Shown here one piece after another: positions 11,049 through 64,000 of a stretch of DNA of 64,000 nt. This DNA comes from an uncultured Chloroflexia bacterium. Lineage in GTDB: Bacteria > Chloroflexota > Anaerolineae > CG2-30-64-16. The notes beneath the pieces were generated by a model. That model searched no databases. It saw only the letters and a list, made by a program, of their open reading frames with translations, and was not told the origin of the DNA. The stretch's first letter is position 1. Each line of letters opens with the position of its first letter. The position numbers and the translations under genes were made by a program. The stretch is from the NCBI GenBank assembly GCA_963810095.1, contig CAWEMM010000006.1:1419353-1483352 (forward strand). Direction: 5' to 3'.

Positions 11049-11055
11049 TACGCCC

Positions 11056-12436: not shown

Positions 12437-12475
12437 GGCCCGGTCAGACGATTCTCCTGCAAAGAGGTTAACCTC

Positions 12476-15351: not shown

Positions 15352-15361
15352 CGGTTAACCT

Positions 15362-35259: not shown

Positions 35260-35298
35260 CTGGACTTGCATTGCCGGATGCAACGGCTAGCTATGCTT

Positions 35299-35381: not shown

Positions 35382-35677
35382 CTTCTGATCCCGTCCGGGT
35401 GCTTTTACACCCGCGACGCCCTCGCTTTCTTCTTTTGTCCTGTTTGTTGCGAGGGACCTTGCCCTTCGTGTGAGCCGCAGTTGCCAGCGCAATTGCTCAT
35501 TGCACGTGCGGCGCCATTATAGCAGTCTTGCGGGTTCGGAAGCAAAGGCTGCGTCCCAAAATCTCAAACGGGGATCTGTCCCAGATGCATGACGCTTCGG
35601 GCAGAGCGTCTGAACCGTCCTGCATAGACCACAGGACGCAAAGGGCGCAAAGCCCTGATTCCCTGCGCGAAAGCCAC

Positions 35678-37009
35678 ATGACAACACACCACCGTCACAT
35701 CCGCGGCCCCCAAGGCCAGCGGCCGGTTCCATTCCGCTTGGTTACGTTCCTCGTGCTGATTGTGCTTGCTCTGCTGGCCGCTGCTTGCGGCGGGCGTGGC
35801 GCCTCCGGCACTTCGGAGAGCCGCGACGTGTCACTGCGCCAGATCGCGGCCCAGTACGCGCAGACGGGCGATCTTCAGCAGGCGCAAACGGCGCTCGACA
35901 AGCTCAATCTGGCCAATCCGGGCCAACTGCTGTTGGCCCTCGGCGAGTCGGACATGAGTGCTGGCGCCCCACGGGATGACGTGCAGGCCGTCGCGAACCT
36001 GGCCGGCGCCCTCGGCGCACGCAGCCAGAAGCTGGTGGCCTACTTGGCGCCGCCGGCGAGCGCCGCGCCGACGAAAGATGCAGGCGCGCCACTGGCAGTG
36101 GAAACCGTCTTGGCGGTCACCCTCGAGGCGCCGACCGTCGCTCCGTCGCCCACTGCTCCACCGCCGACGGCCGCCCCTACGGCGACCGCCGAACCTGCGA
36201 CCGCGACCTCGGCCCCGCCGACGAATAGTCCGACGCCCGAGCCACAGAACCCGCGGGTGGTGGCGAGCAGCGACGTGAACCTGCGCGGCGGCCCCGGCAA
36301 GGCGTATCCCGTCGTGGCACGGCTGCGCAACGGCCAGGAAGTCGCCATCGTCGGCCGCAATGCCTCAGGCGACTGGTGGCAGCTCGAGATGCCCGGCGTC
36401 AAGCAGGCTTGGGTAGCGGGCACCGTGGTCAAGGTGCTTGGGGCCATCGACACGGTCAAAGTGGCCCAGAACATCCCGCCCGTGCCCACCGCTGCACCCC
36501 GACCCACGGCTGCGCCGCAGCCACCGGCCGCCGCAGCACCTGCGCCTGCGCCTGCCCCTTCCGGACCGCATTTCACGCTCGTTGGGCGCCGCCTGTGGAC
36601 GGTCGAGGAAACCGGCGGCGTGGTGGCCGGGGGCCTGTCGGTTAACTGCGGCGGCCAGCACACGCTGCACGTCTATGTCAAAGACGCCGCCGGCAACCTG
36701 CTGAACGGCGTGACCATTAAGGAGACGGGCGGGGTGCAACAGGAGTTAGTGTCGGGCAGCAAGGGGCCTGGCATGGCCGAGTACGATCTGTACCCTCCGG
36801 GCAAGGACGTGGCCATCGCACGGGACGCGGATGGTCGCCAGGCAACGAGCGATACGGGCGCTGCGCCGAGTGTTGTCACTGCCATCCCATTTGATATTCT
36901 ACGCAGTGGGCACTATTGTACGTCTGATGACGACTGCGCTCATCTGGTACGGGAGAACGGCTGCACCGGTCATTACTCGTGGGACCTGGTTTTCCAGCGC
37001 AACTATTAG
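35678..37009 (+). CDS. lipoprotein with an SH3b domain and an uncharacterised Cys-containing C-terminal domain
   Basis: The lipobox is LALLAAAC. The SH3b region reads VNLRGGPGKAYPVVARLRNGQEVAIVGRNASGDWWQLE. The C-terminal domain, ...GSKGPGMAEYDLY...GHYSWDLVFQRNY, is shared with the next gene. Confidence 0.8.
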   Translation: MTTHHRHIRGPQGQRPVPFRLVTFLVLIVLALLAAACGGRGASGTSESRDVSLRQIAAQYAQTGDLQQAQTALDKLNLANPGQLLLALGESDMSAGAPRDDVQAVANLAGALGARSQKLVAYLAPPASAAPTKDAGAPLAVETVLAVTLEAPTVAPSPTAPPPTAAPTATAEPATATSAPPTNSPTPEPQNPRVVASSDVNLRGGPGKAYPVVARLRNGQEVAIVGRNASGDWWQLEMPGVKQAWVAGTVVKVLGAIDTVKVAQNIPPVPTAAPRPTAAPQPPAAAAPAPAPAPSGPHFTLVGRRLWTVEETGGVVAGGLSVNCGGQHTLHVYVKDAAGNLLNGVTIKETGGVQQELVSGSKGPGMAEYDLYPPGKDVAIARDADGRQATSDTGAAPSVVTAIPFDILRSGHYCTSDDDCAHLVRENGCTGHYSWDLVFQRNY

Positions 37010-39037: not shown

Positions 39038-40180
39038 ATGCTGAGCTACAAGCTGACCGACGAACAGGAAATGATCCGGGACATGGCCCGGAGTTTTGCA
39101 AAGAAGGAAATTCTCCCCGTCGCCGAGCACTACGACACGAGTGAAGAGTACCCCTGGCCGATCATCAAGAAGGCCAATCCGCTCGGCTTGATCAGCTCCA
39201 ACATTCCCGAAGCCTACGGTGGGCCGGGCTTTGGCGTCCTCGAAGAGTGCATCATCAACGAGGAACTGGCGTGGGGTTGCTCGGGCATCCAGACCGCGCT
39301 CATGCTGAACAACCTGGCCGCCTGGCCCATCATTTTGGCCGGGAACGAGGCGCAGAAGCAGAAGTACCTCACCCGGCTGACGGCAGGCGGCGAGCTGGCA
39401 TCGTACGGGCTGACCGAGCCGGCGGCCGGGTCAGACGTGGCAGGCATTCTGACGACCGCGGTCAAGAAGGGCGACGAGTATTATCTGAACGGCACCAAGA
39501 CGTGGATCACGAACGCACCCGTCGCGAGTTTCTTCATCATTTTTGCCAAGACCGACCCCGCGGGCCGGCACCGCGGCATGACCGCCTTCATCGTCGAGCG
39601 CAACTGGCCGGGGGTCAGCGTCGGCAAGCCCATCCGCAAGCTGGGGCAGCACGCGGCCTGGACGGGCGAAATCGTGATGGAGGACGTGTGCGTACCGGCC
39701 GAGAACCGGCTGGGCAACGACGGCGACGGGTTCATGATCGCGATGAAGGTCTTCGATCGCTCGCGGCCGCCCGTGGCAGCCGCCGCGGTGGGGGTGGCGA
39801 GGCGGGCGCTGGACGAGGCAACGAAGTATGCCATGGAGCGCAAGGCATTCGGCAAGCCGATTGCTGTGAACCAGGCGATCAGTTTCATGCTGGCCGACAT
39901 GGCGATGAACATCGAGGCGTCGGAGCACCTGACCCGGCACGCCGCGTGGCTGATCGACCAGGGCAAGTCGAACGTGAAGGAAGCGGCCATGGCCAAGGCC
40001 TTTGCGGCCGACACGGTAATGAAGGCGACGACGGACGCGGTACAGGTCTTCGGCGGCTACGGCTACAGCGCTGAATACCCTGTCGAGAAGCTGATGCGCG
40101 ACGCCAAGATTTACCAGATTTACGAGGGCACGAGCCAGATCCAGCGGGTAATCATCGCACGCGAGCTGACAAAGGGCTGA
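39038..40180 (+). CDS. acyl-CoA dehydrogenase
   Basis: This 380-aa protein reads [20 protein letters not shown], and [16 protein letters not shown] at the C-terminus. A GGACGGAGG RBS is present. Confidence 0.92.
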
Positions 40181-42895: not shown

Positions 42896-43287
42896 TTCTT
42901 TTGTTGGGGGCCGCCGGCCCCATCCATTGGATATGTCTTCTGTTGGGGGCCGCCGGCCCCCAACGCCCCGGCCGAGGGGCTGCGCCCCCTCGACCCCCAA
43001 ACTTACTCGGGGAACAGTTCATTTGTGGAGCAACGGCTGGGGCCCACGGACCGCTGCGGGGCTGCCAGTTGCGGGCTTGCACGAGGCCGGCATTTTAGGA
43101 AATGCGCGAGCAATAGCCTCCTCGGGGACATGCAGACGCCGATCTCTTTGGCGATAACTACGCCAGGAGCGTAGCAATTGGGGGTCTCGGGGGCAACGCC
43201 CCCGAGGCGGGGTTGGCAGGGGCCGGCCGGCCCCTGCCAAAAGACCGGAACCTCGAAGCGGGGTGGACGGAGGCCGCCGGCCCCTGC
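42896..43287. repeat. composite GC-rich hairpin repeat, copy D (full length)
   Basis: It begins with two GTTGGGGGCCGCCGGCCCC(C)A hairpins. These are followed by CGAGGGGCTGCGCCCCCTCG, GGCTTGCACGAGGCCGGCATTTTAGGAAATGCGC and CTCGGGGGCAACGCCCCCGAG. It ends with two GGCAGGGGCCGGCCGGCCCCTGCC-type hairpins. Confidence 0.8.
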
Positions 43288-47884: not shown

Positions 47885-48440
47885 TCAGTTGTCGTCGTCG
47901 GCACGCTGCAGCGCAAGCAGCAGCGCGTCTTCGCGCGACGGCGCCGAACCGGCGGGCACGGCGTCCTGGTGCCGGCGCATGAGGCTGACGGCCAGCGGCG
48001 CGCAGCCGGCATCGGATGCGAGACGGGCACTCGTCGCCGGATGATTGGCGTGGGCCCAGAGCGGATAGCGCATGCTGCGCCGGCGCGGCTCGGGCGACGT
48101 CTTCAGCCGCTGCCACGCCCCCGGTGCGAACGCCTTGATCAGGACCACCGCAACCCGGTGAAACAAGGTGACGCCGCCCAGATGCTTGGCCACGTCGTGC
48201 AGCAGCGCGGCCTGGGCGAGGGCCGGGTCGTCAAAGCCGCCCGCCCGCAGCGCAGCCCATACTTTCAGCGCGTGCACCTGGTCAGAGCGGGGCATCCCTC
48301 TGAACAACCGCCAACCTGCCTCGGGCAGCGCCCGCCGGGCACGTGCGAGGTCCTGTTCGTCGGGTCCGCGCCTGCCGCGCCCCCAGTGCCTGCCCGAACT
48401 GGCGCACCCGGTAGGCTACACGCCCGCCAAACCCGGCCAT
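47885..48440 (-). pseudogene. HD-domain protein; one +1 disruption near 48370
   Basis: The first frame reads MAGFGGRVAYRVRQFGQALG. The second reads PDEQDLARARRALPEAGWRLFRGMPRSDQVHAL...ALLHDVAKHLGG. Its ATG shares one base with the upstream stop (TGATG). Confidence 0.7.
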
Positions 48441-49075
48441 CAAATGCCGAGCAGCAGATCGGAAACCTTCGCCGCGCCGACGCTCAGAAAGCCGCCGATG
48501 CTCAATTGGGGCAGCACGAGCGGCACCAGGAAGATCGCCATGAGGATCATCGGGCCGTAGGCCTGCAAGGGAAGCAGCACCGACGAGATACGCTCGCCGA
48601 CAAGCCCGTTCAGCACGGCGAAGCCATCGAGCGGCGGAAGCGGGATCAGGTTGAACAGGAATAGCGTGGCATTGATCAGGATGAACATGTAGACGAAGTC
48701 GAGCACGTTTTGCGACGCGCCCTGCAGCAGGCCCAGGCGATACGCGAGCGCCATCAGGGTTGCCATCAACAGGTTGCTGACCGGACCGGCGGCCGAGACG
48801 AGCGCGTGGCCGACGCGCGGCCCGTACCGCAAGTGATAAGGATTCACCGGCACCGGTTTCGCCCAGCCGAAATGTGCGACCAGCAGGAGGATCGATCCGA
48901 GCGGGTCGAGATGCTTGAGCGGGTTAAGCGTCAGGCGACCCTGCTGCTTGGCCGTGTTGTCTCCCAGCCGGTAGGCCACGAAGGCATGCGCGAGCTCATG
49001 AATAGGGAACCCGACCAGCAGGATCACGAGCAGTGCCGCGAGGGTCGGGAGATCGAGTCCTAAGACGTTTGACAA
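48440..49075 (-). CDS. site-2 protease family (M50) zinc metalloprotease
   Basis: It has HELAHAFVAYRLGD (HExxH) and NLIPLPPLDG, in a multi-TM protein. Confidence 0.85.
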   Translation of the reverse strand: MSNVLGLDLPTLAALLVILLVGFPIHELAHAFVAYRLGDNTAKQQGRLTLNPLKHLDPLGSILLLVAHFGWAKPVPVNPYHLRYGPRVGHALVSAAGPVSNLLMATLMALAYRLGLLQGASQNVLDFVYMFILINATLFLFNLIPLPPLDGFAVLNGLVGERISSVLLPLQAYGPMILMAIFLVPLVLPQLSIGGFLSVGAAKVSDLLLGI

Positions 49076-49179: not shown

Positions 49180-51416
49180 ATGGCACGCAGCATCGTCGAT
49201 CTAAGCACCCTTCCATGGCGTTTCGGCCAGGTCGCCCGCCAGGGCTTTTCGCACGCGGCCGAGCGACGACCGGCGCGCGGTCGCCAACTGGGAACCCGCG
49301 TCAGTCCCCGGCGACGTGCGAGCGGATCTGCTGGCGACGGGATATCTGCGCGGCCTGGATACACCGGAGGATCTTCCGCGGTCAGGCTGGGTGGACAGCG
49401 TCGACTGGTGGTATCGGGTCGATATCGATCCGGTCGAACCGGGAACCACGGTGGTTCTCGAAGCCGACGGGATCGACTACCTCAGCAGCGTGTGGCTGGA
49501 TGGAGAGTTTCTGGCCGCGCACCAGGGCATGTTTGCGCGGCAGGCACTCGTGCTCCCGCCGCCGCATGGAGGCGCCCGGGAAGCACGAGCTGGCGGTGCG
49601 GATTTGGGGCGCGGGTGCGCTGCCGCGCCTCCCCAACCCTCCGCTGCGCCGGGGCCTGCGCCGGCTGATCTGCGGCCTGGGTGTCGTCGACGAATACTTC
49701 CCCGATCGCCTCGCCACCCCCAAAGCGCAATACAGCTTCGGGTGGGACTTCGCGCCGCGCGTGCTGAGCACGGGCATCTGGGACGGCATCCGCCTGGTCC
49801 ACTGCCGGGGCGCCTATCTTTCCGACGTGCAGGTGCTTGCCGAGCCGCTGAGCGAGGGCGACCCGACCCCTGTCCGCTGGACCGTGCGGCTTACGACCCG
49901 GCGATTCGAGGAGCAGCGGCTCACTGCGCGGGTCGAGCTGCGCACGCTCGAAGGTGAACGGATCCCGCTGGCGCGCGATACCTTCGCGTTGGGCGAGGGC
50001 AATGCGGCGGACCTGGTCTTTGATTCGCCGCGACTGGCCCGCTGGTGGCCGTGGGACCAGGGTGAGCCGGCCCTCTACCGCCTTTCAGTTCGACTGTTCG
50101 ACGAGCGCGGGCCGGCCGACGAGGCGGAGACGGTGGTCGGGCGTGCGCACGGTGGGCCGCGAGCGCTTCAAGAACGGGCAGCCCTGGCGTTTCACGGTCA
50201 ACGGCCGCTCGGTCTTCCTGCGCGGGGCGAACTGGGTGCCCGCCGACATCCTGCCCGGCCGGGTGGCCGAGAATGACTATGCCGGCCTGATCGGGCAGGC
50301 GCGGGCCGGGGGGGTCAACTTCCTGCGGGTGTGGGGCGGCGGCATCCGCGAGAAGCCCGCGTTCTGGGAGCTGTGCAACCGGCAGGGCATCCTGGTCATG
50401 CAGGAGTTCCCCCTCGCTTGCACGTTCCTCGATCACTACCCGCGCGATCCGGGCTACCTCTCCGTGCTCGAGTCTGAGGCGCAAGGCATCGTCCGCGGCT
50501 TGCGCAACCACCCAAGTCTGATCGCCTGGTGCGGGGGCAACGAGATCAGCCCGCAACGTGAGCGGCTTCCTCTGCGTACTATTGAGCGGGTGCTGGCGCG
50601 CGAAGACCCCGGCCGGCCCTGGATTCCGGCTTCTCCGTCGACAGGGCGACATCCACAACTGGGACGTGTGGCATGGCGGCGCGCCCTGGCAGTCGTTGGC
50701 GCGGGTTCGCGCCCCGTTCATGAGCGAGTTCGGCGTGCAGGCGCTGCCCCATGCCGACACCATCGCCGAGATGTTTCCGTCGGGCCCGCCCACGCGGCTG
50801 GACGATGCCGGGTGGGCCGCGCGCAAGCTGCAGGCCGACAAGCTGCGTCACTACTGTGGGCCCTTGCCCGAAGAGGACCTGGTAGCCACGATTGAGGCTA
50901 CTCAGAGGACGCAGGCCGCGGCTCTGCAGGCGGGGATCGAGGCGTGCCGGCTCCGCCGCGAGGGCTCGGGCAGCCCGCGCCCATGCGGCGGGCGTGGCCT
51001 TCTGGCAGTTCAATGAGCCGTGGCCCGCGGTCTCCTGGTCCCTGGTCGACCGGCGCGGCCGGCCAAAGGCGGCCTACAGTATGCTCATGCGCAGCTACCA
51101 ACCCCTGCTCGTGGCGGCCGTGTTCGAGCGGCGGGCATGGCGGGCGGGCGACCGGTTCGACGCCGAGATCTGGGTGGTGAACGACGGGGCGGAAGAAGCA
51201 GCAGAGGGCGAAGTCGAGGCGCTGTTGGACGGGCGCAGCGTCTGCCCACGCAGCCGCGTCGCGGCGCCTCCCGCGTCTGCCCGGCAGGTTGGGGCATTCG
51301 GCGTGCAGTTGGCGGGGCCCCCGGCCACCCTCGCGTTGGCGTGGCGGGCAGGCGGTGCGGTTCTTGCCGCCAACGAGTATGACCTGCAGGTCTACTTGCC
51401 GCCGCCGCAGCCCTGA
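49180..51416 (+). pseudogene. glycoside hydrolase family 2 (beta-mannosidase-like) with five +1 frame disruptions
   Basis: The segments run in frame order 1>2>0>1>2>0. They read MARSIVDLSTLPWRF; WEPASVPGDVRADLLATGYL...LEADGIDYLSSVWLDG; HELAVRIWGAG...YSFGWDFAP; FTVNGRSVFLRGANWVP...NHPSLIAWCGGNE; DIHNWDVWHGG...SEFGVQALP; VAFWQFNEPWPAVSWSLVD. Confidence 0.85.
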
Positions 51417-51507
51417 TGGGTTGGCTGATGCGCCGCGCCGGCGAACTGCTGCTGCAAATTGGTTGACACATCGGGGTCGTTTCGGATATCCTCGCAAGCA
51501 GATAAAA

Positions 51508-52547
51508 ATGCGGATAGTCGTCAACGGCTGGTTCTGGGACCGGATGACCGCCGGCAGCGGGCAGTACCTGGCCGCGCTCGGCAGCCGTCTTGCCGCGCGC
51601 CGGCTCGGCGCACGAGTTCATTCTGGCGCTGCCGGCGGCGCACGAAGGAGCCGGCGACGCTCGCTCGAGGGTGGCGCACCGTGCGGCGCGGGACGCCGTT
51701 CGACGCGGCTGCAGCGCAGAACCTGGCCAAGCTGTGGTTCGAGCAGGTCACGTTTCCCGAGCTTGTGCCGCCGTCTGGGGGCGGACGTGGGTTTCGTGCC
51801 CTACTGGGGCTCGCCCTGGGCGCGGCCCTGCCCGATGGTCGTCACGGTGCACGACCTGATCCCGCTGCTGCTGCCGCTGTACCGGGGCGGAAGGCTGCAG
51901 CGGATGTACACCGCGTCTCGTCGGCGCGTACGGCTCGGCGGGCCGCGGCGGTCGTGACGGATTCAGAGGCCAGCCGCCGGGACATCGTGGCCCATCTCCG
52001 CGTGCCGGCAGAACGCGTGCATGCGGTCTATCTGGCGGCGGGCCGGCTGCGAGCTGGGCGCGGACGCCGGACGAGCGCGGCCTTCGCGGCGCGCTTGAAC
52101 CTGCCCGGCGGGCCGTTTTTGCTGTACCTGGGCGGCTTTGACGCACGCAAGAATGTGCTGCGGACGCATCGAAGGCTATGCGAAGCTGGCTCGAGCGGCG
52201 TGGCCGCCGAGGGGGCCGAAGCGCCGGCTTCTGGTCGATTGCGGGCCGGCTGCCCGCGGTCGACTCGGACTTTGCGCCGGATCCGCGGCCGGTGGTCCGC
52301 TCGGCTCGGGCGTGGCGGACCGTGTTCATTTTGCCGGCTGGGTGGACGAGGCAGACAAGGCCGCGCTGTACCGGCATGGCAGCAGGCGTCCTGTTTCGTC
52401 AGCGAGTATGAGGGGTTTGGCCTGCCGGTGCTGGAAGCGATGGCCTGCGACCGGGAAAAGAGATCCACGAGACCTGGTAGGTTCAAGCAACCAGGTCACC
52501 AGCTGCGAGATTGGGGAGTCCTGGTGACTGAACCGTGCGAAGACTGA
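51508..52547 (+). pseudogene. GT4-family glycosyltransferase with many +1 frame disruptions
   Basis: Fragments are spread over all three frames. They read MRIVVNGWFW, NLAKLWFEQVTFP, VVTVHDLIPLLLP, VVTDSEASRRDIVAHL, FLLYLGGFDARKNV, VHFAGWVDEADKAALYR and FVSEYEGFGLPVLEAMAC. Confidence 0.8.
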
Positions 52548-53927
52548 ATCGCGCGGGCCCACAACATCCTGACGCGCACGTTCAGCCTGCGGCGCGACCA
52601 GAACCTGCTGATTTTCGCCGACGTCGCGTCGCTGGAAGTGGTGGAAGTGGTGGCGCGGGTGGCGCGCGAGCTCGGCATCAACGACGACCGCGTTTTTCGT
52701 GCCCGCGGGTGCTCCAGCTCGAGATGGGGCCTAACGAAAGCCTGCCGCTGCCTGCCGAGGCCGCGGTGCGTGAAGCCGACGCGATCCTGAGCTGCCTGTC
52801 CGACCAGCCAGAACACCTGCACTATCGGATGCGCGTGCTGCACGCCAGCTGGGGCCGGCGGGCGCAGGCTCGGCCCACGCGCCCGGCATGACGCTCGAGA
52901 TCGCTGCAGCACGCATCGACACCGACTACGCGGCGATCAGCCGAGCAGGCCCAGCTGCTGAGCCTCGCGCTGATCCTGGGCAAGCGGGTCGAGATCGTCA
53001 CGACGGACAGCCAGCGCCGCGAGCACCGGCTGAACGTGCGGGTCGGCGGCTGGGACTATCCGCCCGGCATCAACGACGGGACGATTCGCGAGGGCGCGTG
53101 GAGCAACCTGCCGCCCGGCGAAGTCTACATCGTGCCGCGCGATGGGGACGGCCAGATCGTCGTCAACGGCTCGATTCCCGGCAAGGTGCTGGGGCCGGCG
53201 GAGGAGCTGATCCTGACTTTCCGCGAGGGCCGGTTGGTCGACGTGGAGCCGGAGGATGTGCCCGCCGCGCGTCATCTGCACGAGACGCAGATCGCCTACG
53301 CGGAGCGCCGCGGCGACACCAACTGGTCGAACCTGGCCGAGGTCGGCTTCGGGCTGAATCCCGCGGTGCAAGACCTGACCGGCCTGGGCGATCGTGGACG
53401 AGAAGAAGGCGCACACGGTTCATGTCGCGGTTGGGCACAGCGCCGGGCTGGGCGGCGACGTAGATTCGGTCATCCACTGCGACATGATCGCCAAGAAGCC
53501 GACTGTCTACGTCAACGGCCGGCTCGATCATGAAGCGGGGCGACTGGCGCATCAACGAGGCGGACTGGCGGCTGGATCACCGCACGGTGACGGTGCCGGT
53601 CGGCTGGTGGGAAAGCATGGGGCAGATTGGCGCGGAGCGGCGCCGCGCACCGAGCGTGAGTCGGGCCGGCTGACATGCGTGTGGAATGCGGGCCGGGGCC
53701 GGTGGGACAGCGCGCCGGTTGGCGTGGAGCAGACGGCGCGCCTGGCCGCTCGCGGTGTACGACCTGCTGCCCGAGAACGGCGTCCCGGTGGGCAAGGCGC
53801 GCGTGGTCGCGCTGGCCGAGCAGGCCGGGCATCCCGTGCGAAGCGCTGCCGCGGCCTGTTCTGGATCATGCTTCAGTTCGACCTGGTCCGGATGTCGCGG
53901 CGCGGTGCCGAGCCAATGCCGACGTAG
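52548..53927 (+). pseudogene. aminopeptidase (M29/AmpS-like) with a C-terminal extension; many +1 frame disruptions and no clear start codon
   Basis: Fragments across the frames read ILTRTFSLRRDQNLLIFAD, LEMGPNESLPLPAEAAVREADAIL, GHAPGMTLE, REGAWSNLPPGEVYIVP...VNGSIPG and VDEKKAHTVHVAVGHS...VIHCDMI. Confidence 0.6.
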
Positions 53928-53976
53928 ACCGGAGACGTCGAAGAACGAGGGGTCGTGGATAGCTGGGGAGAGCATC

Positions 53977-55530
53977 ATGACCGCAGTCAAGACCCCGTGG
54001 CGTCAATCGATGCCGGATTTCCTCCAGTTTCTGGATGGAACGCTGGGACACAAGGTCAAGCTCCACAAGGAAGTGCTCGGCTATGACCTGTATCTCGTCG
54101 ATCTTTCGGACTGGAAGCTGCGCTTCTCCGACCGCACGCCCTTGATCATCGTCAAGGAAGCGCGATCTGGCGTCGATGAGTGCCCGCGAGCTCGCGCAGA
54201 GCCTCGCCGAGGTGGTCCGCGGCCAGTCGCTGGCAGAGCGCAACCCCATCGTCGTCGTGCAGGGACCCGGCAGAGCGAACTCAAGGAGCAGCTGCACGCC
54301 GACGTACCAGCCGCTGCTGGTGCTGGACGAGGCGGACGTGCAGGCCGTGCGCGAGTCGCGGCGGCCCTCGGGCGAATTGCTCGACCGGCTCGCGCCGCAG
54401 CTCGACCTGTCGCTCCTGACGCCCTACGAGACGAGCAAGCCCGTCACCGGCTCGCGCTTCTTCGGCCGGGAGTTCGAGGTGCGCCGCATCCTGCAGACGC
54501 GGCGACAGCAATTTCGCCATTATGGGCATCCGGCGCATCGGCAAGACGTCGCTGATGCGCGAGATCGAGCGCCAGCTGAAGGAGCAGGCGCAGGAGGCCG
54601 AGAGCGAAGAGACGCTGGAGCGCATCATCTTTATGGATTGCAGCGCCATCGCGTCGCCCGAACAACTTCATCCAGGAAGTCGTGCGCAAGCTGCGGCCGC
54701 AGGAGCTGACGCGGCTGTCGTCCAAGCAGTACCCGATCTTCTTCCCCGATTTCCTCGAGCGGATGGCGCAGCGCTACGGCGGCCCGATCATGTTCTTCCT
54801 CGACGAGTTCGACAAGGTGCTTACCTGGCACTACGAGGACGACTCGCTGCTCAACGCGCTGCGGGCGTCGAGCAACCAGGGTCACTCGCGCTATATCGTC
54901 GGCGGCTTCCGCGATGTGATGCGTGCGTTCAGCGACCTGGAATCGCCCCTGTACAACTTCGCGCGGCCCATCCGCCTCAAGGAGTTCAGCCGGGAGCAGG
55001 CCGCGGCGATGATTCTCGGCCCGCTGGAGAAGTTGGGCGTGCAGTTCGAGCGCCGCAACGACGTGGTCAACCGCATCTTCGACGAGACCGCCGGCCAGCC
55101 GAACCTGATCCAGTTCTACTGCAGCATCCTGGTCGAGCGGCTGGACCGCGAGGGCAGCCGGCGCATCGCATCGCTCGCCCGAGAGCCTGTTCGACGTCTA
55201 CGGCAACGACGATTTCCGCGCGTTCGTGCTCAGCACCTTCATGGATAACACGACGCACCTGGAGAAGGCGATCGTGTTTGCGGTGATGGCGGACCTGGGC
55301 GCGGAGCATCCATTCGGCGTCCAGCAGATCGACGGCGCGCTCGAACGTCGCGGGCGTCGAAATCCCGCTGTCCGACCTGGACCTTGCCTGCCGCAACCTG
55401 GAGCTTGGCGGGCACCTTCACCTCGCGCGGGCCGATGTTCCGCTTCGCGACGCCGGTTTTCCCGCGCATGCTGAGCGAGAACTACGACGTAGACTACCTG
55501 TTCCGCAAAGTGCTGCAAGAGGGCATCTGA
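53977..55530 (+). pseudogene. AAA+ ATPase (Arch_ATPase/ORC-like P-loop) with an unknown N-terminal domain; six +1 frame disruptions
   Basis: The frame order is 1>2>0>1>2>0>1. It starts with MTAVKTPWRQSMPDFLQFLDG, followed by FFGREFEVRRIL. The Walker A-like motif is MGIRRIGKTSL and the Walker B-like motif is IMFFLDEFD. Later fragments read AGQPNLIQFYC and ...YLFRKVLQEGI-stop. Confidence 0.7.
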
Positions 55531-55532
55531 CA

Positions 55533-58386
55533 ATGAGCGCTAGCATCGAAGCCTGGCGGATCGTTCCCTACGAAGGAGGCGCATCGCCCGTTCAAGAAGG
55601 TGCGGGTGCGCGACGAGGCCGCGGGTGCGCGCGGTCGTGCGGCACCTGATGAACGACGAGTGCGTCGCCTTGCTCGGTCCGCCCATGAGCGAGAAGAGCC
55701 ACCTGCTGCGGGACGTGGCGGAGGCGCTGGAGCAGGGCGGTCGCTTCCGGCCGCTGCATATCGACTTGTGGCGCACACGATCGAACGATGAGGCCGCCTT
55801 CTTCACCAGCCTTGCCGAGTCTGCTGGCCGACGAGCTGCGGGACGCCGGCGCCGCGAGTCCCGACGAGCCGGCCGAGCACGCGCGGTTCCAGGGTTATCT
55901 CGCCGCTTGCGAATGCGAGCGGCCGCAGCCTTGCGCTGCTGATCGATCACCTGCAGGCGCTGCCGCACGACCTCGTCCACAGCCTGCTGCGTCGCCCTGC
56001 GCGCGGCCTACATGGAGCGCGAGGCCGACGCGCCGCACAGCCTGGTCGCGGTGGTCACCGGCGGCATCAACCTCGTCGGTCTGTCCGTCCGGCCCGACCT
56101 CGCCGTTCAACATCGCCAAACCCGTGGTCGCGACACCGCTGACCCTCGAACAGAGCCGCGCGCTGGCCGAGGCGACGCTCAAGCGCTGGAGTGCTCGGCA
56201 TCCGCCAACGGCATGGACCGCTTGCTGAGCCTGGGCGCAGGCGACCGGTACCTGATTCCGCGGCTCTGCGCCGACAGCTCCGAACTGGTCAGCTTGCACC
56301 GCCTGCACCGCGTGACGTCGGCCATTGCGGATCGCGCCGGCGCGGGCGCTCGTCGCCCGCGGACGCGGCCGCCGCCCGTTCGCGCCGCCATCCGCATGAT
56401 CGAGGAAGACCCGGACACGGTGCTGGACGTGCTGCACCTGCTCGACCACGGCTCGCTGCCGCGCTCACGCTCGCGCCAGATGCCGACGCGCACCGGCACG
56501 GACCGGCTGCAGCTCTCGGGCGCGGTGGTCCTGGTCGGATGGGTGCTACGGCTTTATGAACGAGGCGTACCGCGAGGCGTTGGCCGCGCACTTCACCACC
56601 GACCGGGTCGGGCACATGTTGCGGATTGCCGGGCCGGTGGAGCGAGGCGATCGCCTATCTCGCGCCGCAGCGGGCGCGCGTCGCGCGTCCGCAGCTGCTC
56701 GAAGCCATCGTCCAGATCGATCTATGCGAGCTGACTCGTCCGAACAGGCGTATCGGGCTGCTGGCCGACGGCCTGCGGCTCGGCTTCGGCCTGTCGGACA
56801 TCGGCATCTACTGCGGCGCTGCCGGCCGACTGCTCAGCTCGACCGCGTCTATCCGCCCAAGGACGGCGGCCCGAGGAGCACGTCGACCTGCGCGATCCCG
56901 GGTGCGTCGAGGCCCAGACCTTCAACCTGGGCAACTATGCGCTGCGCGGCACCGCGGATGAGGCGCGCCTGGTCGTCGCGCTGGCATCGGCCAGCCGGCC
57001 GCTCGGCGTCGTGACGATCGAACGCTATGTGCAGAACCGCGATCCGCACGAGCTGCCCGACGAACTGCCCGACCTGCTGCGTTTCCTGCAGCACGCAGTC
57101 CGGGGCGCTGGAAAACGTCATCACTCGGGCTGCCTACCGCGCCATCGGACAGGCCGTGCTGGATGCCAAGGCCATGCAGCCGACCGTGGAGCGGGTGCTC
57201 GAGACGGTAGCGGAGGCGCTTGGGCTGCGACTACGGCGCCCTGTATCTGCGGGATGAGACCGCCGCCAGCTGGAGATGGCCGCAGCAGTCGGCAGGGTGG
57301 TGACGGAGGAGTGGCAGGCGCAGGCGCGCTTTCCCCTCGACGGCCGACACCCCGCGGTCACCGCGCTGCTGGAGGGGCGGATGTTGACGGCGCGAGGGGG
57401 CGAGGACGCAGAGGACCGCGTGCTGCACGACCGTTTCGGCCTGCACCGCTACCTGCGCGTCTTCCTGCCTCTGCTCGCCGGCGGCGAACAGCTCGGCACG
57501 CTCGAACTGGGCTACGCGAGCCGGCCGCATGCGCATGTCGGATGAGCTACAAGCGGACGCTGGTCGAGTTCGCCGACCAGGTGGCGATCGCGGTGCATAA
57601 CATGCTGCTGCTGCGGCGGACGGACGAGGCGCTGGCACGCGCAAGCTGGCCGAGCTTGTCGGTGGGCCGCGAGATTCAGCTCAGCCTGCTGCCGAAGGTC
57701 ACGCCGACCGTTCCCGGCTGGCAGTTCGCGGCCATGTACGAGGCCGCCCGCACCGTCGGCGGCGACTTCTACGACTTCTGCGAATTGCCGGGTCCGCCCG
57801 CATCGGCTGGGCGTCGTCATTGCCGATGTGGCGGACAAGGGCGTGCCGGCCGCGCTGTTCATGGCGGTCAGCCGGACGATCATTCGCAGCGTCGCGCTTC
57901 ACCGGCCGCGGCCCGGCCGTCTGCCCTGATGCGAGCGAACCAACTGATTCTCGCCGACAGCCAGGCCGACCTGTTCCTGAGCGCGATCTACCTGGTGCTC
58001 GAGACCGACAACGGGCGCGGATTTCGTTCAGCAACGCGGGGCACAACCGGCCGCTGCTGGTACCGCGCTGCGGACCGCGCAGCTCACGCGAGCTGACCCA
58101 GCGCGGCATCATCCTGGGCGCGTTCGACGAGATCACGCTGCAGGACGACACGGCTGGACCTGGCCGCCGGCGACGTGCTGGTGCTGTACACGGACGGCGT
58201 CACGGACGCGCTCAACGCGGACGGGCGAGGAGTTCGGCGAGCAGCGCCTGTTCGACGTGGTGCGGGGCAGCGCCGCACGGCAGCGCGCAGGAGATCCTGT
58301 GGGCGATCACGGGCGCGCTGGCGGGCTTCATCGGCGACACGGAGCAGGCGGACGACGTGACCTGCGTCGTGATCAAGAAGGACTAG
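55533..58386 (+). pseudogene. STAND-like ATPase fused to two GAF domains and a PP2C/SpoIIE phosphatase; at least 12 +1 frame disruptions
   Basis: The fragments begin with VALLGPPMSEKSHLL (P-loop) and LALLIDHLQALPHD. The GAF-like fragments are LETVAEALG..GALYLRD and FLPLLAGGEQLGTLELGY. The SpoIIE fragments are [53 protein letters not shown] and DDVTCVVIKKD-stop. Confidence 0.7.
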
Positions 58387-58475
58387 GCCTTTGTTTGTTG
58401 GGGCCCGGATGACCCTCAACACCTGGTTGCATGGGCCGCCTTGCTGTTGGGGGCCGTCGGGCCCCCAACGCCCCC
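58387..58475. repeat. GC-rich hairpin repeat, copy E, left part (interrupted by the IS)
   Basis: It contains GTTGGGGCCCGGATGACCCTCAAC and GTTGGGGGCCGTCGGGCCCCCAACGCCCCC, ending exactly at the IS481 left end. Confidence 0.7.
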
Positions 58476-58562
58476 GTGTATAGACCGGGGACATAGTAGA
58501 CAGTCGTTCGGAGACATGGTAGACGCTAGAATGGGAATAACTGCCACCGGAAGGAGGCTGAT

Positions 58563-59705
58563 ATGCCCTGGCGAGAGGCAAATGCCATGTCCTTACGACT
58601 TGATTTCGTGACCCGAGCTGGTCACGAAGCTGCTAACGTGCGGGCCCTGTGCCGCGAGTTCGGTATCAGCCCGAACACTGCGTACAAGTGGCTTGTGCGC
58701 TACCAGGCGGCGGGGCCCGCGGGGCTGGCCGATCGCTCACGGCGCCCGAACGCAGTCCGAGCCGACACGCCGCCCGGCCGCGAACAGTTGGTGCTGGCGA
58801 CGCGCCAGGCCCACCCGGCCTGGGGCGGCCGCAAGCTCAAGGCCTACCTGGAGCAGGCCGGCTATGCGGACGTGCCGGCAGCTTCCACCATCACAGCCAT
58901 TCTGCGCCGGCACGGGGCGCTGGATGACCAGGAGGGCGCTCAGCATCGCGCCTTTCAGCGTTTCGAACGTGAGGCGCCCAACGAGCTGTGGCAGATGGAC
59001 TTCAAGGGCCATTTTGCGCTCGGGGATGGTACGCGCTGCGACCCCTTGACGGTCCTCGACGACCATGCGCGCTTCCTGTTGGCGCTGGACGCCTGTGCCG
59101 ACGAGACCCGCCGCACGGTGCAGGCCGCGCTGACCGGCGTCTTCGAGCGCTACGGCTTGCCCGAGCGCATCCTGTGCGATCATGGGCCACCGTGGGGCGC
59201 CCCCAATGCCGGCGACGTGTACACGACGTTGAGTGCGTGGCTCTTGCGGCTGGGCATCGGGGTCGTGCACGGGCGGCCCAAGCATCCGCAGACGCAAGGC
59301 AAGGACGAGCGATTGCATCGCACGTTGCGGGCCGAGTTGCTGCGCCGGCAGACGTTCGCCGATCTGCCGGCCTGTCAGCCCGCCTTCGATACCTGGCGGC
59401 AGATGTATAATGAACAGCGCCCGCATGAGGCGCTAGCCATGCAGGTGCCGGCGGCCCGCTATCGGCCCAGCCCGCGCCCGTGGCCCGCCCGCCTGCCCGC
59501 GATCGAGTATCCGGCCAGCGACCGAGTGCGCCGGGTGCAAGATAAGGGCCAGATCAAAGTCGGCGGCCACGAGTTTCGCATCGGCAAAGCCTTCATCGGC
59601 TACCCGGTGGGCCTCCGGCCCACGAACCAGGACGGCTGCTATGACGTTTACTTCTGCGCCCAGCGCATTGGCCAAATTCAACTATCCGCCGGGCAACGGA
59701 TTTAG
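58563..59705 (+). CDS. IS481-family transposase (DDE integrase core), intact
   Basis: The N-terminal HTH reads MPWREANAMSLRLDFV...LCREFGISPNTAYKWLVRY...DRSRRP. The rve-type core reads ELWQMDFKG...DHGPPWG...KHPQTQGKDERLHRTL. Confidence 0.9.
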   Translation: MPWREANAMSLRLDFVTRAGHEAANVRALCREFGISPNTAYKWLVRYQAAGPAGLADRSRRPNAVRADTPPGREQLVLATRQAHPAWGGRKLKAYLEQAGYADVPAASTITAILRRHGALDDQEGAQHRAFQRFEREAPNELWQMDFKGHFALGDGTRCDPLTVLDDHARFLLALDACADETRRTVQAALTGVFERYGLPERILCDHGPPWGAPNAGDVYTTLSAWLLRLGIGVVHGRPKHPQTQGKDERLHRTLRAELLRRQTFADLPACQPAFDTWRQMYNEQRPHEALAMQVPAARYRPSPRPWPARLPAIEYPASDRVRRVQDKGQIKVGGHEFRIGKAFIGYPVGLRPTNQDGCYDVYFCAQRIGQIQLSAGQRI

Positions 59706-59709
59706 CTCA

Positions 59710-61518
59710 GCCTGTGGGTAAGGGGCTGTCCGAAAAGTAATCGGGCGGCCCCTTTTTTGCGTGCTTTTCTCGCGTTCTTTAAGGATTCATGGTTTAATGG
59801 GGGCATGAAACGCAAACCTGCTGCCCCCGTCTTCAAGCCCTACACGATGGCTCAGCCGCAGTTGCTGCCGCCGAGCCTGGATGAGTTGATCGAGCCGGAC
59901 CACCTGGTGCGGGTGGTAAATGCGGCGATCGACCAGTTGGATTTGCGGCCGCTGCTGGCGCAGTACCCCGGCGGCGGGACGTCCAGCTATCATCCGCAGA
60001 TGCTGCTGAAGGTGTTGGTGTACGCCTATTGCAGCAAGATCTACTCGTCGCGGCGGATTGCGGCGGCGCTGCGGGAGAACATTCACTTCATGTGGTTGAG
60101 TGGCGGGAACCGGCCGGACTTTCGCACGATCAACGACTTTCGCGGGCAGCGGATGAAGGGCGTGATCGACGCGGTGTTCGCCGAGGTGCTGCAGTACCTG
60201 GTCGAGGCGGGGTACGTGCAGTTGGAGCACTACTTCGTCGACGGGACGAAGATCGCCGCCGATGCGAACCAGCACAAGGTGGTGTGGGCCAAGCGCACGG
60301 CGCGTTACCAGCAGCGGGTGCGGGAGCAGATCGCGTGAGTTGCTGCGGCAGATCGAGCAGGTGAATGCTGACGAGCAGGCCGAGTACGGCGATGCCGATC
60401 TGGAAGAGCGGGGCCGGCGGTGGGGGTGGCGAGATCGACTCGGACGCAACTCAAGGAGCGCATCGACCAACTCAACCAGCGGCTCCGCGAGCGTCAGCAC
60501 CCCAAGCCCGAAGCCCAGGCAGCCGAGAAGGCGCTGAAGAAACTGGCGACGGATTGTCTGCCGCGGTTGGAGAAGTACGAGCAGCAGACCGCGACGCTGG
60601 CGGGGCGGTCGAGCTATGCCCAGACCGACCCGGACGCCACGTGCATGCGGATGAAGGAAGACCGCGGCGCCGAGCGGCCCTGGCCCAAGCCGGCCTACAA
60701 CGTGCAGGTGGGCACGGAAGGGCAATTCATCGTCGGGTTCAGCGTGCACGACCAGGCGGGCGACACCGGGTGCCTGATCCCGCATCTGGAGCAGGTGCGC
60801 CAGAACACCGGCGGCCGCTTACCGCAGAACGTGGTGGCGGATGCGGGGTACGGCAGCGAAGAGAACTACGCCTATCTGGAACAGCAGCAGGTGGGCAACT
60901 ACCTCAAGTACAACACCTTCTACCAGGACACGCATCATTACCGCGACCCGGCCGTGCTGCGGGCGCACCAGTTCCGGGCCGAGAACTTCGCCTACGACGC
61001 GGCCACCGACACCTTCGTCTGCCCGGCCGGCCAGCGGCTGCACTTCCAGTACACCACCCGCTACACCAGCGACAACGGCTACCTGAGCGACCGCCGCATC
61101 TACGAATGCTTCGCGTGTGCCGACTGCCCGCTGCGCAGCCAGTGCACCCGGGCCAAAGGCAACCGCCAGATTCGCATCAGTTTCCGCTTGCTCGCCTACC
61201 GCAAGCAAGCCCGCGACAACCTGACCAGCGCCGACAGGTGAGCGCTTACGCGCCGCGCGCTCCGTCGAGGTGGAAACCGTCTTCGGGCATATCAAACAGA
61301 ATATGGGCTTCCGGAGATTTCACTTACGCGGGCGGGCGAAAGTGAAGACCGAATGGGGGCTCGTGAGCATCGCTCACAACCTGAAGAAGGTGGCGGCCGC
61401 ATAGGCCGCTTTTTTTCTCCGCTTTCCGCGAGCTCCAACTCATCTCCCGCTGACTCCGAATCGGCACAAGAAAGGGGCTGCCTGGATGTTCTTTCCAGAC
61501 AGCCCCTTACCCACAGGC
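59710..61518 (+). mobile_element. IS1182-family insertion sequence, nested 5 nt after the IS481 transposase stop
   Basis: The terminal inverted repeats are 28 bp with 2 mismatches. The left one is GCCTGTGGGTAAGGGGCTGTCCGAAAAG (59710-59737). The right one is the reverse complement of CTTTCCAGACAGCCCCTTACCCACAGGC (61491-61518). I saw no clear target duplication. Confidence 0.8.
59805..61404 (+). pseudogene. IS1182-family transposase with four +1 frame disruptions
   Basis: The frame order is 0>1>2>0>1. The fragments are MKRKPAAPVFKPYTMAQPQLLPPSLDELIEPDHLVR..., ELLRQIEQVNADEQAEY, QLKERIDQLNQRL...DAGYGSEENYAYLE...CPLRSQCTRAKGNRQI and the tail VEVETVFGHIKQNMGFRRFHLRG...NLKKVAAA-stop. Confidence 0.85.
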
Positions 61519-61603
61519 CCGACGCGACGACACCATTCTTTAAGGTGTTCAGGTGTCTACGATGTCCCCGAACACCTGTCTACGATGTATTCGGTCCATA
61601 CAC

Positions 61604-61760
61604 CCCGACGAAGGGCTGCGCCGCTTCGACCCCCTAATTTGCTCGGGCAGCACCGCATCCGCCGTCTAACGCGCACGGCTGCCGGCCGGGACGGGGCCGA
61701 CAGTGGCAGGCTTGCACGAACCGACGCGATGGAAAATGTACGTCAGGCGGTTTCGCTTTG
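61604..61760. repeat. GC-rich hairpin repeat, copy E, right part
   Basis: CCCGACGAAGGGCTGCGCCGCTTCGACCCCCTAA and GGCAGGCTTGCACGAACCGACGCGATGGAAAATGTACG are colinear with modules 2-3 of copies A and D. Confidence 0.6.
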
Positions 61761-61762
61761 CA

Positions 61763-64000
61763 TCAAGGGCGGCGGGGGCCCGCGGGACCGGGCCAAAGCG
61801 GGAAACCGCCGCCCGTCACAGGCAGGGTGCCGGGCCCACGCAGGACGTCCGACTTGAAGCGCGGGATGATACGGTAGCCCGCGTCGGGCGTCTTCTCGCC
61901 CACGGACTGCCCCAGGACGCCCTGCCGCGGCCCACATCTGCCCGATCTGCACGTAGGGGCGGCGCCAGGGCAGGCTCTCGGGGAAGTAGATGCGGATCAG
62001 CCCGGCCCTGTCTTTCAAGACCAGGCCGCGCGTCTCGTACTTGACCACCGCACCCACGACCTGCACGAGCCTCCCCTCGTTCGCTTCTGCCAGGTCCGCC
62101 GAGGTGACCGGCTGCGGCGCGACAGCCTTGCCTTCGCCCAGCACTGTTAAGTAACCGGCATCGGGGACAGATAACTCGGTTTCTCCGTAGAAGTCGCGGG
62201 TCCAGCCCGTGACCCGCACCCGGCTGCCCGGCTTCAGCGTGGGATAGTCGCCTTTGCGCAGGTAGACCTTGATGCCCCCTGTCTCGTCCTGCAAGTAGAT
62301 CGTCTTCGCAATCAGCCCGGGCGGGAAAGTCACGGTGCCGCTGACGACGGCGCGACTGTCTACCTTCGCCGAGCGGGCCGCCGCGACGGTTTGCGGAACC
62401 GGCGGGGGCGTGGCTTGGGGCGGAGCAGGCGCCGCGGGCGCAGGAGGCGGCAGCAGGCGGTTCGGCTGGCCCGGCGTCGCCTCGCAGTCGGACGTCCACC
62501 CGCCTACGCCGTCGGTGTTCCGACAGTAACTGCGGTCTGCGCCCGGCCCATGGTCATAGGCGAAGCGGTCTGCCAACGTCCCGTCGCTCCTGGTGAGGGT
62601 CACCGAGTCGCGCCAGTCGCTCAGCGAGAGACGGGTCTGGCCGCGGAAGAACAGCATGAAGCTGTGGGGCCAGATCACGGCGCCCGCGGGAATGCGGTAG
62701 CTCGCGGCCTCATCGCCGATCTGCCAGCCCTCCAGGGGGACGGCGCTGCCCGTCGGATTATGCAACTCGATCCATTCGTCCGAGAAGTTCGCCGTGCCGT
62801 CGCGATCCCAGTCGACCGAGCGCGGGTCAGGGAGGATTTCATTCAGCTTGACCTTCAGCGCATCGGGCGGGAGCGGGGTGGGGGTCGGCGTCTGCGTGGA
62901 CGTGGGCGAGGCCGTGACGGTGCCGGTGGGAGTGCGCGTTGGCGTGACAGTGCGCGTGGGTGTGGAGGTGCGCGTGGGCGTGACGGTACGCGTGGGTGTG
63001 GAGGTGCGGGTGGGCGTCGGCGTGGCGGCGGGATCGCGGGTTGGGGTCGCGGTCGGCGTTGCGGTGGGCACGAGGGTCGTGCGCTCGCCTGGGTTGGGCG
63101 CTTGGCGGGTCCAGTCCGCCGCGCTGTCACTGTCCTGGAGGTTCCAGCGGCCTAGTGACTCGCCGGCACGCACTTTCTCGCAGGGCGGCTCGTTAATGCT
63201 CGTGTCCGAGCCGTAGCTCATGGCGTCGACGACGGTGGCGTCGGGTGCGAGGAGGCGGACCGCGTCGCCGGTGTTGCTCAGCCCGTTGCCAATGGCGCCC
63301 TCGAGGCTGACGAGCAGGCCCGAGAAGCCGGGGAAACTGGCGCGGAACGCGGCTTCTTTGGCGGCAACAACGGCATATTCGCCGGGCAGCAGGCTGAACT
63401 CGGGCAGCGCGTCCTGGCCCGTGTTGTCGCCGATGCGCCAGCCCGAGAGCAGGACCGCGTCGCCCGTGGGGTTCACGATCTCGACGAACTCCCAATCGGC
63501 ATCCGCGCCGTCTTGGATAGGGTCGTACAGCACTTCACTTAGGAGCAGCTTCGGCCAAGCCGCCGGATACGGGAGAGTTGGCGAAGGCGTCGGCGTGGCT
63601 GTGCGGGTGGAGGCGGGCGTGCGCGTGACTGTAGGCGTGCGGGTGACCGTGGGACTTGGGCCGGCCGTTCGCGTCGCAGCCGGCGTGCGGGTTGCGCTCG
63701 CGGTCCGAGTCGGAGTCCGCGTGAGGGTTGCAGTCCGCGTGATTGCGGTCCGCGTTGGGCTCGCGGTGCGGGTTGGGCTGGGGGTGCGGGTCGGCGTCGG
63801 AGTGGGCGTGCTTTCGATCGTCCCGCTCACGCCGGGATTGGGGACCGATTGCCCATACCAGTCTTCTGCCGTGCCGGTGTCCATGTCGCTGGGGATACGC
63901 GACAAGGACTCGCCGGCCGCTACCCCGGGGCACGCCGGGTCGAACGCCGTCGTATCTGAGCCATAGCTCATCGCATCTGCCAGCACGCCGTTCGGCGCCA
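61763..64000 (-). pseudogene. secreted multi-LTD (lamin-tail-domain) / OB-fold protein; 5' end outside the window, with one +1 disruption near 61935
   Basis: There are three LTD-like repeats (SEVLYDPIQDGADADWEFVEIVNPTGDAVLLSGWRIGD; NEILPDPRSVDWDRDGTANFSDEWIELHNPTGSAVPLEGWQIGD; a partial one at the window edge). They are separated by TPTRT-type linkers. An OB-like region follows (VVSGTVTFPPGLIAKTIYLQDETGGIKVYL). The tail GVLGQSVGEKTPDAGYRIIPRFKSDV lies in the next frame. Confidence 0.8.
62932..63020 (-). repeat. 36-bp tandem repeat (about 2.5 copies) encoding the Pro-Thr-Arg linker
   Basis: Unit 62932-62967 and unit 62968-63003 differ at 3 positions. They encode STPTRTVTPTRT repeats within the LTD protein. 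Confidence 0.8.

Follow-up and report, generated by a model that had tools for sequence, protein, structure and literature searches.

Dense frame disruption across five conserved genes of a Chloroflexota contig is very probably a consensus artefact

The 64 kb window (the whole stretch of DNA that was analysed) contains five consecutive genes at 49180-58386, each of which uses all three reading frames according to the frame plot, Pfam searches of stop-masked frames and frameshift-aware alignment. Are these genes decaying, or is their sequence at fault? The earlier note had counted at least 35 disruptions at 49.2-58.4 kb and allowed two readings, one of low-accuracy or low-coverage long-read sequence and one of a decaying accessory island. 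Frame changes were counted by frameshift-aware alignment of intact orthologous proteins from two related metagenome-assembled genomes (MAGs), L002 and L003, to the DNA. Within 49.25-58.28 kb the five genes contained at least 68 net frame changes, a number that surpasses the earlier count, and all five loci proved to be multiply disrupted, as had been claimed (Table 1). Indel positions are good to a few bases only, with no intact copy from the same species as a guide. The island is almost certainly an artefact and not a real feature of the genome.

Table 1. Features of the disrupted stretch and its surroundings, with positions in the window.
Feature	Position	Strand	Frame changes, domains and remarks
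Isolated +1 frameshift in a flanking gene	44911	-	Seen with both L002 and L004 alignments; example of background error
M50-family peptidase-like gene	48440..49075	-	Pfam Peptidase_M50
GH2 glycoside hydrolase	49180..51463	+	6 frame changes (~49264, 49562, 50139, 50641, 50990, 51415)
GT4 glycosyltransferase	51477..52451	+	8-11 frame changes; Pfam Glyco_transf_4 and Glycos_transf_1
M29-like aminopeptidase homologue	52541..53897	+	11-12 frame changes
AAA/STAND-type ATPase	53926..55530	+	7-8 frame changes; Pfam AAA_22 and nSTAND1
ATPase-like N-terminus, GAF and SpoIIE/PP2C phosphatase (RsbU-like)	55533..58386	+	31-32 frame changes
GC-rich REP-like hairpin	58449..58475	+	Downstream of PP2C gene; IS481 target site
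IS481-family element, composite with nested IS1182	58477..61602	+	Alignment to uninterrupted 98%-identical copy in L009
IS481 transposase, open 380-aa ORF	58563..59705	+	Pfam rve, HTH_32 and LZ_Tnp_IS481
IS1182-family element	59727..61501	+	Inserted in 3' hairpin of IS481; Pfam DUF772
LTD/OB-fold protein gene	61743..63986	-	Pfam LTD and tRNA_anti-codon

The 7 kb left flank contained 2 frame changes, and the density there was 0.28/kb (42.15-49.2 kb). It was 2.65/kb at 49.2-51.46 kb, 8.96/kb at 51.47-58.39 kb and 0.42/kb beyond 61.6 kb. The rate ratio between the island and the left flank was 26 (p = 1e-14), and the median spacing of the 68 changes was 97 nt. An abrupt change had been described near 49.1 kb. 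A rise does begin at ~49.25 kb, but "abrupt" overstates it, as the density climbs in two steps, being moderate from ~49.25 kb and high from ~51.5 kb. Nor does the noisy zone end at the IS cluster, as had been supposed: it extends past the five genes and through the cluster, at lower density within IS481/IS1182, up to a single +1 frameshift at ~61925 in the LTD/OB-fold gene, its last event in alignments to L002 and L003. In the relatives, the LTD/OB-fold gene is convergent with the PP2C gene. On the left, the M50-like gene is the last with low noise; it is divergent to GH2 and showed no credible internal frameshift against its L002 and L004 orthologues.

With the frame changes removed, the five genes aligned end to end with intact orthologues at 60-92% identity, covering 98-100% of the orthologue length except in GT4 (about 95%). 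Start and stop positions were conserved in all five, which argues against decay. GH2 (753 codons) was 60% identical to L002, and its corrected protein matched Glyco_hydro_2_N2, Glyco_hydro_2 and Glyco_hydro_2_C in that order in Pfam. GT4 was 64% identical; its Glycos_transf_1 match spanned profile positions 14-113 of 172, and the short C-terminus recurs in all relatives. The M29-like gene (445 codons) was 85% identical to L002 with a dN/dS of 0.12, and gave a weak Pfam Peptidase_M29 match (22 bits versus a cut-off of 27). The AAA/STAND ATPase (528 codons) was 92% identical to L002 in amino acids and 87.6% in nucleotides, with a dN/dS of 0.08. For the GAF-PP2C gene (975 codons) the identity was 85.5% and the dN/dS 0.12; the corrected protein matched a family whose intact members are 937-944 aa long, with 100% coverage, and its SpoIIE match improved from 6e-8 before correction to 1e-43 after. 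A protein database search with this one gene returned no relative above 87% identity, the best being 85% over the full length and 87% over a partial one.

Counting stops and substitutions against intact orthologues, as the earlier note had suggested, gave 0 in-frame stops in the 3033 codons of the five corrected genes, each being free of them, versus the 9-19 expected with 68 indels at a neutral substitution:indel ratio of 5-10 (P = 8e-5 to 6e-9). Against L002, dN/dS was 0.08-0.30 for the island genes and 0.11-0.44 for the flanking genes; the island values are not above those of the flanks, and selection is not relaxed. Both results speak against decay. Purifying selection acts on all five genes, which are also conserved and syntenic.

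The order of the five-gene block is identical in four related Chloroflexota MAGs (L001-L004), whose collinearity with the window spans both borders: it runs from 42.3 to 58.4 kb and resumes at 61.8 kb. Because of this conserved synteny the block is not accessory, contrary to what the decay reading holds. In L002, a short-read MAG that served as reference, the five genes are single intact ORFs, and L004, a short-read SPAdes MAG, has 0 internal frameshifts in the same genes. Two Nanopore-only Microflora Danica MAGs, L001 and L003, had 11 (8 of them +1) and 3 frameshifts in the five genes, respectively, with no stops in either. Microflora Danica MAGs are metaFlye assemblies that received one Medaka round (PMC12313526). 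Frameshift counts in the relatives thus track sequencing technology, which again disfavours decay.

By direction, 55 of the frame changes were +1 and 13 were +2/-1 (p = 3e-7), about half of the "+2" events being two separate 1-nt insertions, and single-base insertions made up at least 80% of all events. Each frame change could be accounted for by 1-2 nt at most, and deletions longer than 5 nt were absent from the three genes aligned at the nucleotide level. Bacterial pseudogenes are normally deletion-biased, and indels that are nearly all 1 nt, biased towards insertion and without a range of sizes argue against decay. At 54 inserted bases, run lengths of 1/2/3/4 occurred at 59/30/9/2%, compared with 61/30/7/1.5% in the background, and a homopolymer-driven error model was rejected on this match. 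Genuine slippage mutations are expected mainly in runs, and the lack of a homopolymer association is a further point against decay. The textbook Nanopore error is the homopolymer deletion; random non-homopolymer insertions are closer to a PacBio CLR profile.

About 16 disruptions had also been reported at 0-49 kb. Background disruptions do exist there, although the figure of 16 was checked only roughly: four were confirmed by a Pfam domain across the junction (16881, 22393, 27178 and 29062), two more are likely (26093 and 28153), and two were confirmed against orthologues (44911 and about 48370, at 48365-48377). Positions 13100, 20640 and 37996 are candidates only, from a reference-free HMM scan that cannot separate gene junctions from frameshifts. 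Nine other HMM switches, at 2735, 3335, 3910, 7795, 23114, 27473, 28540, 29456 and 42204, are ordinary gene boundaries and were rejected. The shift was +1 in 9/9 background frameshifts found outside the island within the window, as it mostly is inside, and this agreement indicates a single error process. The contig elsewhere shows the +1 error type too, at ~1/25 of the island's density (7 kb left flank, firm counts).

The IS481 element has 27-nt terminal inverted repeats that start with TGT (TGTATAGACCGGGGACATAGTAGACAG and TGTATGGACCGAATACATCGTAGACAG), and a 5-bp direct repeat, CCCCG, lies on either side of it (58472-58476 and 61603-61607). These ends and the target duplication, together with an rve DDE transposase with an HTH/leucine-zipper N-terminus, place it in the IS481 family. 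The syntenic site in L001-L004 lacks the element. The REP-like hairpin has a second copy at 4791-4817 with 1 mismatch (0 expected by chance), and related short repeats also occur in L009. Comparison with the uninterrupted L009 copy confirmed that IS1182 is nested inside IS481. The nested element belongs to the IS1182 family by its DUF772 N-terminus, its short ends (TGTCCGAAAAG and TGTCTGGAAAG) and its collinearity with annotated transposases, such as the Paenibacillus IS1182 transposase WP_174812429.1 (504 codons, 48% identity); no target duplication was seen at its ends. Its transposase gene carries 3-5 frame changes (60333, about 60389-60446 and 61236) and no in-frame stop, consistent with the four breaks noted before. 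The IS481 transposase had been called completely intact, which goes too far: the ORF is open, but a compensated -1/+1 pair at ~58750/58765 leaves residues 63-68 out of frame. It also carries H160D, where all six aligned relatives (P0241 and five homologues) have His. Because both transposase genes contain indels, transposase activity cannot be judged from the window sequence. That IS481 is multi-copy is partly supported by the 98%-identical copy, which lies in another genomic context in another assembly (L009); no second copy was found within the 64-kb window.

Some 70 or more single-base indels at 49.25-58.3 kb are spurious, and no fewer than 80% of these are insertions. Judged from the sequence, the 9 kb island is very probably a poorly polished stretch of a long-read metagenome contig in which the underlying genes are functional. 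Of the two readings first proposed, the one that invokes long-read sequence of low accuracy or low coverage agrees with all the tests run. The cause may be that effective read depth was low, or that polishing failed, beside the IS cluster. Depth could be low if the IS insertion or the adjoining segment were polymorphic in the population, or alternatively if the path were bridged by few reads only, and IS481 may be cleaner since reads from its other copies would add depth. Two observations count against the consensus-error explanation: the unique 9 kb segment is noisier than the adjoining repeats, and non-homopolymer insertions are atypical for Nanopore.

An artefact could also have a cause other than low depth, namely a misjoin or the collapse of co-existing strains into one consensus. 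The polisher would then have put spurious bases where two diverged haplotypes mix. The source is apparently a metagenome assembly, the error zone lies beside an IS insertion that the relatives lack and that could be polymorphic, and the error density rises in steps and declines gradually rather than forming a simple dip, all of which would suit such an origin. Mixed haplotypes should, however, give substitution mosaics, and substitutions are not in excess in the corrected proteins; the window also remains closest to L002 (85.5% identity, versus 78-81% for L001, L003 and L004). We regard this origin as unlikely.

Real pseudogenes in a degenerating island beside the IS cluster are very improbable. 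The many disruptions in each gene, the adjoining IS481/IS1182 cluster and the disruptions elsewhere in the window, as in a pseudogene-rich genome, are what such an island would show, yet the decaying accessory island fails on synteny, stops, dN/dS, deletion bias, indel sizes and the homopolymer link. We give a slightly slimmer chance to a real recent burst of single-base insertions over ~12 kb, for example by error-prone repair synthesis from the IS481/IS1182 site before substitutions accumulated, or to the milder variant in which the errors mark a real polymorphism, for instance loss of the 9 kb block from most cells by an IS-mediated deletion that starved it of reads. Foreign or chimeric DNA, whether an island gained by horizontal transfer or a chimeric contig, is the least credible origin, since the slightly higher GC at 50-54 and 56-58 kb (0.69-0.705, against neighbouring stretches) is equalled in other parts of the window, the codon periodicity is the same as in the training genes, and L001-L004 are collinear over both borders. 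Repeats marking a rearrangement were looked for on the flanks of the noisy zone, and none was found.

The consensus-error explanation matters mainly for quality control and brings no new biology. Spurious indels make gene callers see shattered genes, and uncorrected annotation would turn five conserved genes into about 40 fragments or pseudogenes, which could be mistaken for genome decay or an accessory island. None of the tests applied (frameshift-aware orthologue alignment, in-frame stops, dN/dS, indel direction and context, and comparison of relatives by sequencing technology) requires reads, and they could flag similar stretches in other long-read MAGs.

Among known systems, the IS481 element resembles its family in its rve transposase, IS481 leucine-zipper/HTH N-terminus, 27-nt repeats starting with TGT and 5-bp duplication, and the nested element resembles known IS1182 transposases in DUF772 and a collinear C-terminal region. 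Both differ from known IS elements in that their transposase genes carry small indels like those of the neighbouring genes. Pseudogene-rich decaying genomes and islands (Mycobacterium leprae, recent host-restricted symbionts) are alike in having many consecutive disrupted genes with IS elements nearby. The window differs from genomes of the Mycobacterium leprae type in having no stops, relaxed dN/dS, deletion bias, large deletions or slippage context, and in its fully conserved synteny and gene ends. Long-read assemblies are known to contain artefactual indels that fragment genes (PMC12007338). Compared with such Nanopore/PacBio artefacts, the errors in the window are concentrated (9/kb over 7 kb versus 0.3/kb in the left flank), and they depart from the usual Nanopore profile in being insertion-dominated and homopolymer-independent. 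The likeness to the artefacts addressed by IDEEL- or Kastor-type checks (PMC12007338) lies in single-base indels that split ORFs, in full-length proteins free of nonsense substitutions once the frame is restored, in a frequency that tracks technology among the relatives, and in the same error type occurring sparsely along the contig.

Between 49.2 and 58.4 kb the reading frame switched every few hundred bases in a GC3 frame plot, and Pfam searches of stop-masked translations found the GH2 and SpoIIE domains scattered over all three frames. Frame changes were counted with a purpose-written protein-to-DNA aligner that models 1-nt and 2-nt frameshifts as states of their own, using as queries the intact proteins of two related loci, L002 and L003; positions were nearly identical with either reference. 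With L002, 68 frame changes were found in the five genes (median spacing 97 nt), about twice the minimum of 35 counted in the earlier note, which had rightly put the breaks at five to more than 12 per gene (6 to 31-32 by alignment). The frame-corrected proteins gave clean Pfam domains in order (SpoIIE improving to E = 1e-43), and the gene identifications of the earlier note were right. The GT4 gene stops immediately past the EYEGFGLPVLEAM motif (Glycos_transf_1 profile position 113/172), with the M29-like gene directly behind it; since the short C-terminus is common to all relatives (L002-L004), it is a conserved feature outside the artefact.

Features of the window and of L009, with frame changes and their density
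Feature	Coordinates	Length	Frame changes	Per kb
Left flank	42.15-49.2 kb		2 (44911, about 48370)	0.28
GH2	49180-51463		6	
GT4	51477-52451		8-11	
M29-like	52541-53897		11-12	
AAA/STAND ATPase	53926-55530		7-8	
ATPase-GAF-PP2C	55533-58386		31-32	
Island, first part	49.2-51.46 kb		6	2.65
Island, core	51.47-58.39 kb		62	8.96
IS481	58477-61602 (limits include the nested IS1182)		2	1.6
IS481-family transposase	58563-59705	380 aa		
IS481 3' stem-loop	59706-59726 / 61502-61518; L009 8281-8329			
IS1182-family element	59727-61501	1775 bp	3	1.7
Right flank	61.6-64 kb		1 (61925)	0.42
REP-like hairpin repeats	58449-58475, 4791-4817, 42937-43012, 43162-43216, 15068-15126; L009 8408-8678			

Eight related loci turned up when species-representative genomes were searched with part of the M29-like gene; all come from Chloroflexota MAGs (labelled Chloroflexia, Anaerolineales or Anaerolineae). 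The nearest by M29-like identity were L001 (89%, over a 150-aa query fragment), L002 (85%), L003 (84%) and L004 (80%). When all ORFs of the loci were compared with the window (GC ~67%) by tblastn, it was collinear with the relatives over 42.3-58.4 kb and again from ~61.8 kb; the island is therefore conserved core synteny, and the IS cluster (58.4-61.8 kb) is a window-specific insertion between two convergent genes.

Six independent properties set sequencing error apart from decay in the island. The comparison with intact orthologues that had been proposed, counting indels, stops and substitutions, gave no in-frame stops in the 3033 frame-corrected codons of the five genes. Stop-creating changes make up 2.8% of all possible single substitutions in these codons, and 9-19 stops would be expected if the 68 indels were real and accompanied by 5-10 times as many substitutions, the usual ratio in bacterial mutation spectra (P(0) = 8e-5 to 6e-9). 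Against L002, dN/dS was 0.30 for GH2, 0.29 for GT4, 0.12 for M29-like, 0.08 for the AAA/STAND ATPase and 0.12 for ATPase-GAF-PP2C, and 0.11-0.44 for flanking genes; judged by these sequence ratios, selection on the five genes is not relaxed. No closer relatives of the L002 proteins are known than the frame-corrected proteins of the window, and gene starts and stops match the orthologue positions. The events were also directional, with +1 base in 55 and +2 or -1 in 13 (p = 3e-7). In nucleotide alignments to L002 (82-88% identity), about half of the "+2" events resolved into two nearby single-base insertions, and only ~6 single-base deletions coincided with a frame change. In bacterial pseudogenes that arise naturally, indels vary in size and deletions predominate. 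Inserted bases fell in runs of length 1/2/3/4 at 59/30/9/2% against a per-base background of 61/30/7/1.5%; the insertions show no preference for homopolymers, as replication slippage would.

Frameshift counts in the relatives track sequencing technology, as seen when L002 proteins were aligned to the orthologous loci. ORFs are intact in L002, which like L004 carries SPAdes-style short-read contig names, and L004 had no internal frameshifts in the five genes. Both L001 and L003 belong to the Microflora Danica MAGs, which were assembled with metaFlye from Nanopore reads only and given a single round of Medaka polishing (PMC12313526). Frameshifts in these two were mostly +1, numbering 11 in L001 (eight of them +1, six in GH2; locus 6290-15455) and three in L003 (locus 8600-12550), without in-frame stops. 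Indels that fragment genes are a well-described artefact of long-read assembly (PMC12007338).

Frame-change density in the island was 26-fold above the left flank (p = 1e-14), so the excess of breaks described earlier stands; its right limit at the IS cluster does not. Disruptions were significantly sparser in IS481 and in IS1182 than the rate in the 51.5-58.4 kb core predicts (P = 0.001 for either element) and denser than in the flanks, which places the low-quality zone at ~49.25-61.93 kb, with its peak adjoining the IS cluster. Disruptions outside the island, sought by HMM scan and then by Pfam on peptides fused over each suspected junction, do exist: four were confirmed (methyltransferase, 16881; PrsW protease, 22393; response regulator, 27178; histone-deacetylase-like gene, 29062), and those in an HtrA gene (26093) and a metallophosphoesterase gene (28153) are likely. 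The window thus does have a background noise level, at roughly one break per 3-8 kb, and +1 in all nine background frameshifts of known direction marks one process across the contig. The coding HMM also left long apparently non-coding gaps at 33528-34412 and 35006-35732, with a comparable one at 14935-15836; a single tRNA-Leu(CAA) gene (35299-35382) lies inside the 32-36 kb stretch.

A second IS481 copy, 98% identical and in another genomic context, was found in an ENA metagenome assembly (L009, ERZ25039545 contig_118187), and aligning the two copies gave the element's limits. Its ends are 27-nt terminal inverted repeats, flanked by a CCCCG target duplication, and its target site is a REP-like hairpin lying 3' of the PP2C gene. 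Such hairpins belong to a family of short GC-rich intergenic repeats (e.g. GGGGGCCGTCGGGCCCCCAACGCCCCC) that are found beside the L009 copy too, a hint that L009 derives from the window's own organism or a very close one. The IS1182-family element sits exactly in the loop of the stem-loop just past the IS481 transposase stop codon, in place of 13 nt, and no target duplication is seen there; L009 keeps this hairpin uninterrupted, confirming the proposed nesting. The IS1182 transposase (504 codons aligned, 48% identity to a Paenibacillus IS1182 transposase) had 3-5 frame changes and no stops, in line with the four breaks first counted. The IS481 transposase, earlier called completely intact, is open and yet not clean: by comparison with L009 and five homologues, residues 63-68 are out of frame because of a -1/+1 pair at 58750/58765 (RRPNAVRADT vs RRPTRSPSHT; family consensus RRPAxSPGQT), and position 160 is Asp where the six other aligned sequences have His. 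An ORF at 39038-40180 is also exactly 380 aa long; a blastn search with the IS cluster gave no match to it, which rules it out as a further IS copy. In L009, HSP33 and glutamine synthetase genes are split (319-845, 1077-2494), probably by the same kind of indel noise.

The disruptions are error-like and the underlying genes are conserved. We interpret 49.25-61.93 kb, with high confidence, as a part of a long-read metagenome contig where polishing or depth was locally poor, its dense breaks being no biological feature; error-like indels over conserved, syntenic genes bear out the low-accuracy assembly stretch that the earlier note had offered as one reading. A collapsed-strain consensus is a variant of this artefact reading and may be the cause. 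The other reading, a decaying accessory island, fails on core synteny and maintained selection, and genuine decay of the five genes is very improbable given the lack of stops, the unrelaxed dN/dS, the +1 bias, the missing homopolymer link and the technology-dependent frameshifts in relatives. Still less credible is a chimeric or foreign segment, which the tests run contradict. Low depth could lie behind the under-polished stretch, as could a shortage of bridging reads or a polymorphism of strains or of the IS, and IS481 may be cleaner since reads from other copies would add depth. The sequencing platform is one that we infer: the window's insertions are random, whereas homopolymer deletion is the classical Nanopore error profile, and their +1 predominance is like that in Nanopore-only L001.
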